Source: Candidatus Latescibacterota bacterium (GTDB taxonomy: Bacteria > Latescibacterota > UBA2968 > UBA8231). From it: a stretch of 64,000 bases of DNA. The translations under genes were made by a program, and so were the position numbers. Where the stretch lies: the NCBI GenBank assembly GCA_965203355.1, contig OZ241889.1:4000001-4064000 (forward strand), read 5' to 3'. Under the pieces are notes generated by a model. It searched no databases and had not been told where the DNA came from. It saw only the letters and a list, made by a program, of their open reading frames with translations. Within the stretch, counting starts at the first letter, position 1. Each line of letters begins with the position of its first letter. Of the stretch, positions 57,587 to 64,000 are shown one piece after another.

Positions 57587-57889
57587 ATGGAAAACACCCA
57601 CTTCGTCCCAGCCGCGGCCGAGCACGTCGCCCGAGAAAAAAACAAAGCCAAGGAACTGCGCCGCTCCCAGTGGTGGAAGCGCAAACGAGCCGCTGGCCAG
57701 TGCCACTACTGCCAGCAATCATTTGCGCCCCAAGAACTGACCATGGATCACGTGGTACCGCTCATTCGCGGCGGCCACACCACCAAGTCCAACGTGGTCC
57801 CTTGCTGCCAGCCCTGCAACAGCCAAAAGCAGCACCTGCTCCCCATTGAATGGGCGGCCTATCTAGAGCGACTGCGCGGCACTAGCTAG
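57587..57889 (+). CDS. Small HNH endonuclease
   Basis: CHYC...TMDHVVP..RGG.....NVVPCC..CN..K. Confidence 0.88.
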   Translation: MENTHFVPAAAEHVAREKNKAKELRRSQWWKRKRAAGQCHYCQQSFAPQELTMDHVVPLIRGGHTTKSNVVPCCQPCNSQKQHLLPIEWAAYLERLRGTS

Positions 57890-58827
57890 TGATAATCCAC
57901 AAGGTCGGCGATGGCCGCGGCCACTTCCGCGGCCACTTCCGCCGGGACCCGCGGATTGAATGGGCCGCCCTCGCCGCCATCCACATCGCTGAATCCCCCC
58001 AAGTGCATAGCTTCGACCACAGCCGAATAGTTGTACATGCGGCCGTTGCGAAAGCGAATTTCCTCTAGGGGCGCGAGCTGGTTTTCAATCTGCTGCGAGG
58101 TCGCAAAATCGCCGCGGCGCTGGGCGTTGTTGATCTCGTCTGAGGCGCGGACAAAGGCCACGTTGATACCCGACGTATGCCCTTTGGTGCCGCGCTCGGC
58201 CGGCCCGGTCGAACGATCGCCCACACCCCAAATCACCAGCGCAGCCCCTTCCTCGACACCCGCGACAATCGGCTCAACATCATCAACCGTAGTGCCGATC
58301 TTCAGGCCCGCGAAGTACTCGGACTCGTTCATCAGCCGCACGGCTATCTCGCGCTCGGCTGAGTTGCGCAGGTAGTAGAGCAACTGGGCGCCGCACGAGC
58401 GTCCTAACCGCTCGGCAAGGTCGAGATAATAGGCAAAAATGCCCTCTGGATTGGCTACCCCGGCAAGCGGCATGACGAGATAGACATCTGGAGGATATTC
58501 GAGCGCGGCCTCCCGCTCGATCAACCGCTCGGCATCCCCCACCGGATTGGGGGCAATCCCGGCCATCAGCACCCCGCGCCCCCTCATCTGCTCGCCGGTA
58601 AAGCCCAACAGCCGCACTTGCTCGTCCGCGCTAATGTGGTGGATCAAGCTAGTGCCGGCGATGCCGATCACCCGAGGGCGATCGCCGTCCAAGTGATTAT
58701 TGTCCATCAAGTAGTGGATGTTCTTGGCGTGGGCCTCGTAGTCGATTTGCCCGCCGCGAAAAGGGACCACCGGAATCGAAGTAACTGAGTTTAGCGCGGC
58801 GAGTAGGTCTTCTTGTTGCAATGGCAT
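57886..58827 (-). CDS. Divergent DHDPS/NAL-family TIM-barrel lyase
   Basis: SIPVVPF, ID...H..NI.YL, LLYY, GLKIG (Schiff-base Lys position), TSG; ATG at 58827. Confidence 0.7.
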   Translation of the reverse strand: MPLQQEDLLAALNSVTSIPVVPFRGGQIDYEAHAKNIHYLMDNNHLDGDRPRVIGIAGTSLIHHISADEQVRLLGFTGEQMRGRGVLMAGIAPNPVGDAERLIEREAALEYPPDVYLVMPLAGVANPEGIFAYYLDLAERLGRSCGAQLLYYLRNSAEREIAVRLMNESEYFAGLKIGTTVDDVEPIVAGVEEGAALVIWGVGDRSTGPAERGTKGHTSGINVAFVRASDEINNAQRRGDFATSQQIENQLAPLEEIRFRNGRMYNYSAVVEAMHLGGFSDVDGGEGGPFNPRVPAEVAAEVAAAIADLVDYH

Positions 58828-58859
58828 GTTTAACCTCAACTGTGTTAAATGCGATGAGT

Positions 58860-59933
58860 TTAACGCTCGGGGGCGAAGTAGCACATGTCGCGCCCCGGCG
58901 TTCCCGCGGCGATCCAACGGGCGACGATTTGGCCGGTAATCGGCCCTAGCAAGACGCCGTTTTTGTAGTGCCCAGAAGCCACAAAAACGCGCGGCGCATC
59001 CGTCAGCGGGCCAATGAGCGGACGCCCGCCTCGCGGCTTGGGCCGCAGCCCGGCCTGCTGGCGCGACAGGGGCAGGCACTTTCCCAACGCAAAGCGCACC
59101 TCCGAAGCAAACTCCGCGGCGGCAGCGCGGGTCGTCGCCAACCGAAAGCCGACCTCTTCCACCGTCGATCCCACGATTGTTTCGCCGCTGTCTGGAATGA
59201 AATGGCGTCCGTTTATCCTCACTAAATGGCGCAGCCGGGCACCAGCAAAACGCGCTTGTTGGCCTCGCACCGGGCGCAGCGCGATTTGGGCACCAAGCTG
59301 GGCGGCCAAGTCGCCGGTCCACGCCCCAGCCGCCAAGACCGCAAAGTCGGCGCGGTGGGTTCCGCGGGTAGTCGCGACCTCGACGGTCTCGCCCACTTGA
59401 GCAACGCGCCAGACGCGCTCGCCCCAAGCAGCGGACGCGCCCTGCCGCACGGCCACCGCCCAAAGGGCCGCGCCCAACCTGAGGGGATCTACCCGATGAT
59501 CGTCGGCAAAATACAGCCCCTCGCCCTTGCCGTCTAAACCCGGCTCCACATCGCGCAAGGCCCGCGCGTCGAGCCGCTCAACCCGACAGCCGCGCGCACG
59601 GTTGAAGCACCATACCGCCTCTAGCTGGGCCGGGGCGGCAAAAAGCTCAATGCCGCCGAGGGGACGCCAGCCCACATCTACACCCAACTCTTCGGCTAGG
59701 TCGCGAGCCAGCCGAGCGTGCAGGGCGTGGCCATCGCGGAAAAGCTGGGCGTAGGGATTGTCGCCGCCGTTGCAGTGGGTGAGGACCCCCAACGAGGCCC
59801 GGCTCGTGGGCGAAGCGGCTATCCCCTCGTCGATCAGGACGACCTTCGCGCCTTGCCGAGCGAGGAAATAGGCTGTCGAGCGACCGATGATACCGGCCCC
59901 GACCACCAACGCGCGCACACCCGTTAAGGCCAT
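58860..59933 (-). CDS. FAD-dependent oxidoreductase (glycine oxidase/DAO family)
   Basis: VVGAGIIG, AAGAW, PVRGQ, GLRP, GHYKNGVLL.P.T. Confidence 0.88.
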   Translation of the reverse strand: MALTGVRALVVGAGIIGRSTAYFLARQGAKVVLIDEGIAASPTSRASLGVLTHCNGGDNPYAQLFRDGHALHARLARDLAEELGVDVGWRPLGGIELFAAPAQLEAVWCFNRARGCRVERLDARALRDVEPGLDGKGEGLYFADDHRVDPLRLGAALWAVAVRQGASAAWGERVWRVAQVGETVEVATTRGTHRADFAVLAAGAWTGDLAAQLGAQIALRPVRGQQARFAGARLRHLVRINGRHFIPDSGETIVGSTVEEVGFRLATTRAAAAEFASEVRFALGKCLPLSRQQAGLRPKPRGGRPLIGPLTDAPRVFVASGHYKNGVLLGPITGQIVARWIAAGTPGRDMCYFAPER

Positions 59934-63275: not shown

Positions 63276-63279
63276 CTAG

Positions 63280-63543
63280 CTAACCAAGGTGCTTTGTCAG
63301 CCCCTCAGTTGGGCGAGGAATCACGTGGACGCTGCGCAGTTCGCCAATGCGCTGAGCCGCTTGCGCCCCGGCATCCACAGCCGCTTTAACCGCCGCTACG
63401 TCGCCTTCTACCAGCACGGCAATTAGGCCACTGCCCACGCGCTTTTGGCCGACATAGCTCACGTCCGCCGTCTTCAACATGGCGTCGAGGGCTTCGACAA
63501 CGCAGACCAAACCCCGGGTCTCAACCATACCCAATGCTTTCAT
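63280..63543 (-). CDS. BMC-H hexameric shell protein (EutM/PduA-like)
   Basis: ALGMVETRG, DAMLKTA, VGSG, GDVAAVKAA, HVIPRP; AGGAGA RBS. Confidence 0.96.
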   Translation of the reverse strand: MKALGMVETRGLVCVVEALDAMLKTADVSYVGQKRVGSGLIAVLVEGDVAAVKAAVDAGAQAAQRIGELRSVHVIPRPTEGLTKHLG

Positions 63544-63556
63544 TATGGCTCTCCTC

Positions 63557-64000
63557 TTACAAGTATAGCGCGACGAGGTCGTCGTGGGGGCGGGGAATCA
63601 CGTGCTGCGATACGAGCTCGCCCACGCGCTCGGCTGACTCAGCACCAGCGCTAACCGCCGCTTGCACCGAGCCAACGTCGCCGCTGACGATGGCGGTGAT
63701 GTACCCGCCGCCGATATCCTGCAACTTGACGATCTCCACATCCGCGGCCTTGCTCATGGCGTCGGCCGCTTCGATCACGCCAATGGCCCCCTTCGTCTCA
63801 ATGAAACCCAAGGCGCGGACGCGGCCATCGCGCTCGCCGCGCTCGCCGCACTCGGGTACGACGGTCGTTAGCTCGCTGTGCGGGCGGGGAATCACATGCA
63901 CCGAATGCACCTCCCCGACCTTGGCCGCCGCGGTCGAACCAGCATCCACGGCCGACTTGACAGCCGCCACATCCCCTGAGCAAAACACAGTCACCAAGCC
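63557..64000 (-). CDS. Multi-domain BMC shell protein (at least two domains; 5' end beyond window)
   Basis: GDVAAVKSAV..HVIPRPH followed by ALGFIETKG..DAMSKAA..HVIPRPH. Confidence 0.92.
   Translation of the reverse strand, partial: GLVTVFCSGDVAAVKSAVDAGSTAAAKVGEVHSVHVIPRPHSELTTVVPECGERGERDGRVRALGFIETKGAIGVIEAADAMSKAADVEIVKLQDIGGGYITAIVSGDVGSVQAAVSAGAESAERVGELVSQHVIPRPHDDLVALYL

Follow-up and report, generated by a model that had tools for sequence, protein, structure and literature searches.

Which enzyme supplies the aldehyde to the bacterial microcompartment (BMC) whose genes fill the end of a 64,000-nucleotide stretch of a Candidatus Latescibacterota genome (contig OZ241889.1, positions 4,000,001 to 4,064,000; the whole stretch is called the window below)? 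Positions 57886-64000 of the window are read here as the 3' two-thirds of a metabolosome operon of the MUF2 type, a catalogued type with an aldehyde dehydrogenase (AldDH) but no known aldehyde source. The analysis now points to a candidate for this source, the enzyme DHDPS1, which belongs to the DHDPS/NAL family and is encoded beside the shell genes. This is a real operon of a catalogued yet functionally unsolved type, in which DHDPS1 is a good candidate for a tethered cargo enzyme and probably not the only aldehyde source. The account as a whole, a MUF2 operon with DHDPS1 as a cargo aldolase acting on a keto-deoxy sugar acid, is held with moderate confidence, slightly above an even chance.

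Gene families in the window were assigned with a Pfam scan and a second scan against the NCBIfam cut-offs. The eight genes of the operon are co-oriented on the minus strand and encode, from the window edge inwards, the shell proteins T2a (two-domain BMC-T) and BMC-H, a Cys-rich protein, the shell proteins T2b (divergent BMC-T) and Q4 (four BMC domains), DHDPS1, a DAO-family FAD oxidase (DAO below) and a second, divergent DHDPS protein, DHDPS2 (coordinates in Table 1). The gaps calculated from the coordinates are 13, 4, 3, -8, 14, 0 and 32 bp along the operon, the T2b and Q4 genes sharing 8 nt, and Pfam finds 2+1+2+4 = 9 BMC stretches. An earlier note, made from the letters of the window alone, had described eight co-oriented genes with gaps of -8 to 32 bp and nine BMC domains, which Pfam and the coordinates bear out; Pfam agrees equally with its DHDPS gene with an N-terminal extension, its FAD oxidoreductase after a 0-bp gap and its divergent second DHDPS gene. 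The first gene, which it had called multi-BMC, does encode a BMC protein, but an ordinary two-domain BMC-T. T2a is cut at its 5' end by the window edge, with the C-terminal 147 of about 186 amino acids present, and is 91% identical over 79% of the 186-aa protein of a related locus, L001. The start of DHDPS2 is the ATG at 58827, which gives the length found in its homologues, and not that of a 525-aa open reading frame (ORF) reaching into the DAO gene.

Relatives of the operon were collected by scanning one genome per species with the DHDPS1 protein, which gave 69 loci with 63-92% identity to the query. Their genomes are labelled as metagenome-assembled genomes of Latescibacterota or Gemmatimonadota, plus single ones of Planctomycetota and Handelsmanbacteria. 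Because the arrangement recurs in the 69 loci fetched with this query, the gene order is not due to chance. Thirteen proteins of L001 (91% identical) were mapped onto all loci by tblastn, and the denominators given below for upstream genes are the loci with enough DNA on that side. In L001 the genes for AldDH, BMC-P (PF03319, E 1.1e-23) and PduL (PF06130, E 7.6e-65) open the operon and the shell genes follow in the order of the window. AldDH, the phosphotransacylase (PTAC) PduL and BMC-P, together with the Cys-rich gene, are present in 41 of the 56 loci that have at least 5.6 kb upstream. The AldDH of the relatives scores 645 bits on the EutE-like NF011927 (cut-off 403) and is 51% identical to E. 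coli EutE, and the N-termini of the relatives' AldDH and PduL can be read as encapsulation peptides. The earlier note had taken the locus for a metabolosome operon and had placed the missing pentamer, AldDH and PTAC genes upstream or elsewhere; the relatives carry all three, and directly upstream.

T2b, Q4 and DHDPS1 form the invariant core cassette of the system: T2b and Q4 are upstream of DHDPS1 in 63 of the 63 loci that have room for both. The earlier note had named the conservation of the oxidase and the second lyase with the shell genes as a check, and these two turn out not to be constant partners: DAO follows DHDPS1 in 49 of 67 loci and DHDPS2 is found in 45 of 66. AldDH and DAO occur together in 41 loci and are both missing from 15, with no discordant locus. 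A satellite form, represented by 17 loci (plus the fragment L065), holds the trio T2b, Q4 and DHDPS1 only. Three complete satellite-type genomes have, as a separate main locus of PVM-like layout, genes for PduL, BMC-H, AldDH, a class II aldolase and acetate kinase plus three for BMC-P. DHDPS2 is absent from all four satellite-type genomes searched, and the best matches to the DAO profile in such genomes reach 208-215 bits, against 555 for the orthologue in the genome of L001. Because these 17 loci and four genomes manage without them, DHDPS1 is independent of DAO and DHDPS2, which are read as an accessory pair of the main-locus form.

Among the loci with DAO, three of 48 have no counterpart of DHDPS2; the ORFs after DAO in L067 and L034 were examined and are not DHDPS2. 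A 314-aa gene after DHDPS1 in the satellite loci was considered as a relative of DHDPS2 and rejected (hhalign 0.3%); it encodes a metallohydrolase of the CehA/McbA family. This gene (90 bits, cut-off 80) and one for a PhyH-family dioxygenase follow the cassette in 15 of the 17 satellite loci (e.g. L047 11250-12945), in the slot that DAO and DHDPS2 fill in the main-locus form. PhyH genes are also found near the BMC-P and BMC-H satellites of the main-locus-type genome G004.

The locus family is MUF2, as judged from the identity of the relatives' T2b proteins with catalogue entries. Supplement file 3 of the catalogue of Sutter et al. (2021, Nat Commun 12:3809, PMC8217296) labels the BMC-T class Ts 'hazel', of 187-194 aa, as bmcType=MUF2, and its sources are Gemmatimonadetes CME04/10/13/20 (main) and CME25/28 (sat). 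In an exact-sequence look-up the T2b of L024 is CME20_01425 and that of the satellite locus L062 is CME25_02550, while CME13_09850 falls in the cluster of the T2b of L054; the catalogue labels are MUF2 main for CME20_01425 and CME13_09850 and MUF2 sat for CME25_02550. The T2b of the window is 73%, 51% and 55% identical to those of L024, L054 and L062, respectively. The two architectures described above correspond, in this assignment, to the main and sat forms of the catalogue.

The BMC type that the earlier note had inferred is not a new one, because the shell proteins of the relatives are the MUF2 entries of the catalogue. The same note had held that a clean match to a described type with another signature enzyme would speak against it, and half of this was found: the type is described, yet no signature enzyme is assigned to it. 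The catalogue passages that deal with MUF2 count it among the loci with AldDH (pfam00171) but without an obvious signature enzyme and attribute no function to it, and nothing structural given there sets the window locus apart. The HMM table of the catalogue (Supplementary Data 6) does not list PF00701, and the locus diagrams (Supplementary Data 2) may already show DHDPS together with DAO. In the literature search, MUF2 was mentioned only by this catalogue and its preprint. Two other types had been considered, FRAG for the BMC-P triplets of the relatives and MIC6 for the DAO HMM of its catalogue entry, and both were dropped once the MUF2 labels matched. MIC6 resembles the present locus in having a DAO-family gene in a metabolosome locus (the catalogue gives DAO and Fer2_BFD HMMs), but its entry, from Desulfobacteraceae, has a permuted grpU-like shell protein, and neither such a protein nor a Fer2_BFD match was found in the scans of the window. 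Axen 2014 and Youssef 2015 describe a Latescibacteria microcompartment that is a different locus, SPU-like and equipped with a class II aldolase.

The conserved residues indicate that DHDPS1 is a class I (Schiff-base) enzyme of the DHDPS/NAL family. They were read from an alignment of four DHDPS1 and three DHDPS2 sequences with E. coli DapA, NanA and YagE, in which the Schiff-base Lys (DapA K161) and a Tyr (DapA Y133) are invariant across all five proteins. In 20 DHDPS1 sequences, with a mean column identity of 76%, Y200, K227 and G110-E114 are invariant; they align with Y133, K161 and the GTTGE motif of DapA. In DapA, Arg138 serves aspartate semialdehyde, and the corresponding position is Phe in DHDPS1 and Ser in DHDPS2. 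The motif of DHDPS1 is GSTGE, as in NanA, and GCEE stands opposite the GYDE of NanA. The matches in PDB include a KDG aldolase (4uxd) and YagE at E ~1e-35 and human HOGA1 (3s5n) at E 4.1e-27, with DHDPS1 as similar to bona fide DapA structures as to KDG aldolase and YagE. On NF040954 (Arch_KDGaldase) it scores 120 bits, against a cut-off of 390. DHDPS1 thus has the same Lys and Tyr, the same GSTGE-type motif and the same lack of Arg138 as the class I sugar-acid aldolases YagE, archaeal KDG aldolase, NanA and FucH, from which it differs by an additional N-terminal domain and a C-terminal tail. E. coli YagE is annotated as 2-dehydro-3-deoxygluconate aldolase and lies beside D-xylonate dehydratase; the L-KDF aldolase FucH is described in PMC11199699. 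A literature search joining microcompartments with dihydrodipicolinate synthase gave nothing relevant.

The two accessory enzymes are more distant from named families. DHDPS2 has dapA as its best NCBIfam match at 27.8 bits (cut-off 206.15) and, as its nearest PDB matches, 3e96 and 3d0c, both deposited as 'dihydrodipicolinate synthase'. It keeps the Schiff-base Lys (K177) and the equivalent of Tyr133, and is without the Tyr107 equivalent and the GxxGE motif; in 15 sequences K177 and Y152/Y153 are invariant and the mean column identity is 73%. Within the phylum, 62 of 167 genomes have it, with identities of 95 to 56% and the next matches at 30% or below. DAO reaches 157.1 bits on ThiO (TIGR02352), under the cut-off of 250.8, and is closest to glycine oxidase; its family profile aligns over the full length with the PDB glycine oxidase 4ysh (E 1.7e-64). 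No targeting extension or recognisable encapsulation peptide was found in DAO or DHDPS2 by Pfam and alignment.

DHDPS1, by contrast, has such an extension. Its DHDPS domain begins at residue 69, which leaves an N-terminal extension of about 68 residues, made up of a domain (residues 1-52, window 60930-61085) and a Pro/Ala linker (residues ~53-68); the C-terminal tail is conserved. The N-terminal domain is homologous to the start of the Cys-rich protein (hhalign 98.9%, E 1.5e-17 over 49 columns, ~52 residues), and in both proteins this module is followed by a Pro/Ala-rich linker of variable length. A joint profile of the module matches residues 4-46 of E. coli EutT with moderate strength (81.6%, E 1.1e-5). 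EutQ and EutT have an N-terminal module of about 45 residues with the pattern ...ITxxxL...(L/I)TPxAxD/E...(I/V), in the same register here, followed by a flexible region; in DHDPS1, unlike these, the module is joined directly to the enzyme. For EutQ, PMC12487888 (2025) reports shell binding by helices H1/H2 (residues 9-41) and binding of cargo peptides by H3/H4. By this likeness DHDPS1 would be a shell-tethered cargo, held by its domain of about 52 residues on a flexible Pro/Ala linker, and it is a good candidate for this role.

Even with the threshold at E<=10, the Cys-rich protein and the N-terminal domain of DHDPS1 fall into no family of Pfam or NCBIfam. For these family-less sequences the atlas gave sub-threshold similarities only, 0.84 to unnamed clusters and 0.79 to a cluster with 34% EutQ members. 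C77, C92, C95, C110, C113 and E80-G85 (the EEFGSG region) are invariant in 16 sequences of the Cys-rich protein. In its AF2 model, residues 1-52 form a strand-helix-strand-helix-strand unit (pLDDT 83-95) and residues 131-147 a helix (~85), with low values for the Cys region; a Foldseek search of the model against PDB gave no match at E<=0.001. The C-terminal amphipathic helix, which reads EALVEQITELVIHRLAD in the window, looks like the encapsulation peptides of AldDH, PduL and class II aldolase. Since the protein carries both the module and this encapsulation-peptide-like helix, a two-ended layout as in EutQ is proposed for it, and it probably links shell to cargo as EutQ does. E. coli EutT (L089 18503-19306) also has a layout like that of the Cys-rich protein, with the N-terminal module, an acidic/Gln-rich linker and a Cys cluster, HPQACCELC.

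A search of 1.84 billion representative sequences with the module profile found 946 proteins at E<=0.001, of which 45 were scanned with Pfam. Four of these are DHDPS proteins, 15 have a weak match to LacAB_rpiB (PF02502), one is a surface-type protein of 1071 aa and 25 have no family. In many proteins of 200-270 aa (P0333-P0434) the module lies at residues ~40-100 and is followed by C-terminal RpiB-like matches at E 7e-7 to 1e-3. Pfam02502 is given as the hallmark of SPU microcompartments in the literature passages on that type, and these are probably RpiB-like proteins of SPU-type microcompartments. In the 1071-aa protein (P0373), which has a type IX secretion CHU_C tail, the profile matched in 11 stretches and may have picked up a look-alike repeat.

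The earlier note had seen in the locus a BMC type built on a class I aldolase. DHDPS1 does lie beside the shell genes in all 63 loci, but this reading goes too far. Each of the five genomes of relatives searched has exactly one pfam00596 (class II aldolase) gene, and the three C-termini that were read, DLVERITEEVLRQLR (G004), DLVERITREVVRRLQ (G005) and DLVAEITQQVMQELHK (G001), form a canonical encapsulation peptide, which in G004 and G005 comes after a linker. Because the relatives encode such a tagged enzyme, the organelle probably also encloses a class II aldolase and is not built on the class I aldolase alone. In the main-locus-type genomes G004 and G005 the class II aldolase gene lies off-locus and is surrounded by housekeeping genes; in one of the two genomes a lone BMC-H gene is two genes away. 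The protein of main-locus-type genomes is 55% identical to that of the PVM-like locus of satellite-type genomes. The AldDHs of the main-locus form and of the PVM-like locus are 56% identical.

Both forms share features with the PVM and PVM-like (fucose/rhamnose) compartments. In the satellite-type genomes the main locus has just the gene set of these types (class II aldolase, AldDH, PduL, acetate kinase and three BMC-P), and the main-locus-type genomes keep the tagged class II aldolase and a BMC-P triplet elsewhere in the genome. The operon type of the window instead adds T2b, Q4, DHDPS1, the Cys-rich protein, DAO and DHDPS2, and the class II aldolase is outside the operon. BMC-P triplets are typical of the PVM and FRAG types in the literature passages on these types. 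The triplet adjoins lytB/ispH in G004 (L073 8970-11078) and in G005 (L074 6931-11861), and in G005 the main operon starts directly after the triplet and lytB/ispH. Both architectures also have, near a sigma-70 gene, a lone BMC-H of 149 aa that is extended at its C-terminus and has an ORF of 112-117 aa after it (G004, L072 7995-8444; G001, L070 11936-12385).

The route favoured here for the compartment would begin with the entry of a 2-keto-3-deoxy sugar acid into the shell. DHDPS1, with Lys227, Tyr200 and GSTGE, would cleave it to pyruvate and a small aldehyde: 6-deoxyhexonates would give lactaldehyde, and pentonates or hexonates would give glycolaldehyde or glyceraldehyde. The shell would trap the aldehyde, AldDH would oxidise it to the acyl-CoA, and PduL would recycle the CoA and yield the acyl-phosphate. 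The class II aldolase with its C-terminal encapsulation peptide, encoded elsewhere, would feed the same shell, and the organelle would then be a PVM-like compartment with a class I aldolase cassette. DAO and DHDPS2 would most likely act outside the shell, or be carried in on another cargo, on a substrate of the amino acid type. The likeness of the AldDH to its named relatives fits a small aldehyde without naming which.

Besides the motif likeness of DHDPS1, several genes around the loci hint at a keto-deoxy sugar acid. An FAH-family gene is divergently upstream in 33 of 41 main loci, with a rhamnose-mutarotase-like gene beside it in the closest relatives. Satellite cassettes have two enolase-superfamily dehydratase genes 4-9 kb downstream, one of them a galactonate dehydratase equivalog (399 bits, cut-off 311), and in the same range a gene that resembles sugar dehydrogenases; enolase-superfamily paralogues number 3-9 per genome.

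Several points weigh against the sugar-acid route. The name sugar-acid aldolase for DHDPS1 draws on motif likeness and a loose genomic context, and the comparison of GCEE with GYDE leans on the role of the NanA residues. DHDPS1 is below every NCBIfam cut-off and its best NCBIfam match is dapA (TIGR00674, 159.5 bits against 206.15). As to the context, the best NCBIfam match of the FAH gene, 2,4-didehydro-3-deoxy-L-rhamnonate hydrolase, has 222 bits, far below the cut-off of 500; dapF and other genes intervene between the satellite cassettes and the dehydratase genes, with both strands used; and no L-rhamnonate dehydratase equivalog reaches its cut-off in any of the five genomes. The identity of the AldDH, 51% to EutE and 56% to the PVM-like AldDH, does not discriminate between aldehydes. 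The 0-bp gap between DHDPS1 and DAO, found in 25 of 49 loci, suggests joint work that the sugar-acid mechanism leaves unexplained. For the tether, the match of the module profile to residues 4-46 of EutQ, in the same register, is weak (15%, E 0.0017). AldDH, BMC-P, PduL and the class II aldolase are assigned to the organism of the window from relatives whose DHDPS1 is about 90% identical, and an alcohol dehydrogenase for NAD+ recycling was absent from the 21 ORFs of L001 that were scanned, a search that did not extend to whole genomes.

The coupling of DHDPS1 with DAO is the starting point of another explanation, an amino-acid route, which is considered unlikely. DAO would oxidise a D-amino acid or cyclic amino acid, for instance a 4-hydroxy amino acid such as cis-4-hydroxy-D-proline, and so yield an imino or 2-oxo acid, and DHDPS1 or DHDPS2 would deaminate or cleave the product in the manner of HOGA or of pyrroline-4-hydroxy-2-carboxylate deaminase, a member of the DHDPS family; the aldehyde handled by the shell would be alpha-ketoglutarate semialdehyde, glyoxylate or a small aldehyde. 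The 0-bp gaps fit this, as does the joint occurrence of DAO, DHDPS2, the Cys-rich protein and AldDH, of which AldDH and DAO are without a discordant locus. The full-length alignment of DAO with glycine oxidases, the strong conservation of DHDPS2 with its Schiff-base Lys and the presence of HOGA1 among the PDB matches of DHDPS1 point the same way. The known bacterial hydroxyproline pathway likewise combines a DAO-family flavoenzyme with a DHDPS-family protein and gives an aldehyde product, and the literature passages on it name the pairing of D-hydroxyproline dehydrogenase with pyrroline-4-hydroxy-2-carboxylate deaminase. The present DAO, however, is nearest to glycine oxidase and not to any named hydroxyproline enzyme, and the DAO/DHDPS2 pair is dispensable for the cassette, which occurs without it in the 17 satellite loci, with DHDPS2 absent from four of four such genomes; even among the loci with DAO, three of 48 are without DHDPS2. 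Neither enzyme has an extension or encapsulation peptide to bring it to the shell, and an AldDH 51% identical to an acetaldehyde dehydrogenase is a better fit for a small neutral aldehyde than for a keto-acid semialdehyde.

Distinctly unlikely, in our assessment, is a PVM-like fucose/rhamnose compartment in which the class II aldolase encoded elsewhere is the signature enzyme and DHDPS1 an auxiliary cargo and not the aldehyde source. DHDPS1 might then use up surplus aldehyde by condensing it with pyruvate, or work on the pyruvate or dihydroxyacetone phosphate side of the pathway, and DAO and DHDPS2 would have an unrelated cytosolic role. The single-copy class II aldolase in all five genomes, tagged wherever its end was read, the complete PVM-like main locus of the satellite-type genomes and the BMC-P triplets in both forms speak for it. 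The sugar isomerases divide the evidence: L-rhamnose isomerase is present in both satellite-type genomes searched but in none of the three of the main-locus type, and fucose isomerase was not found in any of the five. Because these isomerases are absent, a phosphorylated route feeding the class II aldolase was not found in main-locus-type genomes with the queries used. DHDPS1, moreover, is beside shell genes in 63 of 63 loci, a constancy that no other enzyme shows, and its catalytic residues are intact. The notion that both DHDPS genes are lysine-pathway DapA paralogues beside shell genes by chance is extremely improbable. It would agree with dapA as the best NCBIfam match of both proteins and with dapF, which most satellite loci have about 3 kb downstream of DHDPS1, but it is already contradicted by the scores of 159.5 and 27.8 bits, both under the dapA cut-off of 206, by the loss of Arg138, by the domain that DHDPS1 has in common with the Cys-rich protein and by the constant adjacency to the shell genes.

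DHDPS1 as a cargo aldolase remains the preferred reading, and it is the sole enzyme that is constantly with the shell genes and bears a domain of a shell-binding type, alongside the tagged class II aldolase in the same genomes. With these two enzymes the 'unknown function' of MUF2 narrows to a short list of assays. Should DHDPS1 prove to be cargo, the DHDPS/NAL family would gain its first microcompartment signature enzyme, and there would be an example of targeting by a folded N-terminal domain and not by a short amphipathic peptide.

The shell part of the cassette is unusual in its domain number. The BMC domains of Q4 lie at residues 3-90, 101-187, 197-284 and 294-381 and are unpermuted; the linkers between them, of about 10 aa, match those inside ordinary BMC-T proteins. 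The four domains of Q4 and the two of T2b fall into six classes, each a separate conserved clade in 18 loci, and the D-x3-K edge motif is retained in each of the six. The T2b and Q4 genes are adjacent in 63 of 63 loci and overlap by 1-14 nt in 44 of these. The Q4 family has 386 relatives at E<=1e-20, and the best 120 of the 386 are 285-404 aa long, most of them 369-404. Four consecutive positions in a ring leave a hexagon open, and its simplest completion is one T2b per Q4. It is possible, but for the present a tentative suggestion, that T2b and Q4 assemble 1:1 into a fully asymmetric pseudohexameric tile and form with DHDPS1 a portable 'tile plus enzyme' cassette, in which DHDPS1 would dock on the tile by its N-terminal domain. 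If true, the cassette could plug a new aldehyde source into a PVM-like shell, as in the satellite form, or sit in the main operon, as in the window. A complex prediction of Q4, T2b and residues 1-58 of DHDPS1 gave a score of 0.00 (mark 0.32), which is evidence neither way. The phrase 'four BMC domains' was not found in the literature search, and the main texts of the two catalogue papers make no mention of such proteins. The constant pairing of Q4 with T2b raises a testable question on asymmetric tiles that is of interest to shell engineers.

Table 1. Genes of the microcompartment operon in the window, in operon order
Feature	Position	Strand	Family evidence
T2a, two-domain BMC-T	63557..64000	-	Pfam BMC, 2 stretches, E 2.4e-38
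BMC-H, shell hexamer subunit, 87 aa	63280..63543	-	Pfam BMC, 1 stretch, E 8.3e-27; 96% identical to L001
Cys-rich protein, 148 aa	62829..63275	-	no Pfam/NCBIfam family
T2b, divergent two-domain BMC-T (Ts 'hazel'), 194 aa	62241..62825	-	Pfam BMC, 2 stretches
Q4, four tandem unpermuted BMC domains, 382 aa	61100..62248	-	Pfam BMC, 4 stretches, E 3.7e-74
DHDPS1, 383 aa	59934..61085	-	Pfam DHDPS, E 9.9e-58, residues 69-352
DAO-family FAD oxidase, 357 aa	58860..59933	-	Pfam DAO, E 1.4e-55
DHDPS2, divergent, 313 aa	57886..58827	-	Pfam DHDPS, weak, E 1.6e-9

The operon ends at DHDPS2, and the genes that follow it in L001 are different ones of mobile type (PIN, restriction-modification methylase). In the window an HNH endonuclease gene (57506-57889, plus strand; PF14279, E 6.1e-14) is convergent with the operon and shares 4 nt with the end of DHDPS2. 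Positions 55700-57300 have a low GC content, 45-54% against ~60-68% around them, and look like inserted DNA. This stretch holds an HTH_3 protein (56658-57155) and a small upstream ORF (57034-57297) in a toxin-antitoxin-like layout, together with two 113-aa ORFs without family. The gene at 53981-55747 on the plus strand encodes a protein of 588 aa that has a PcfJ-like domain at its C-terminal end (E 8.9e-11) and a 552-aa counterpart downstream of the L001 operon (18000-19658, minus strand). Further away, at 49562-53358, there is a metal-uptake cluster made up of an ABC ATPase, a binding protein of the ZnuA type and an ABC-3 permease with a fused C-terminal domain of the DtxR type, adjoined by a divergent DtxR-family repressor with a FeoA domain.

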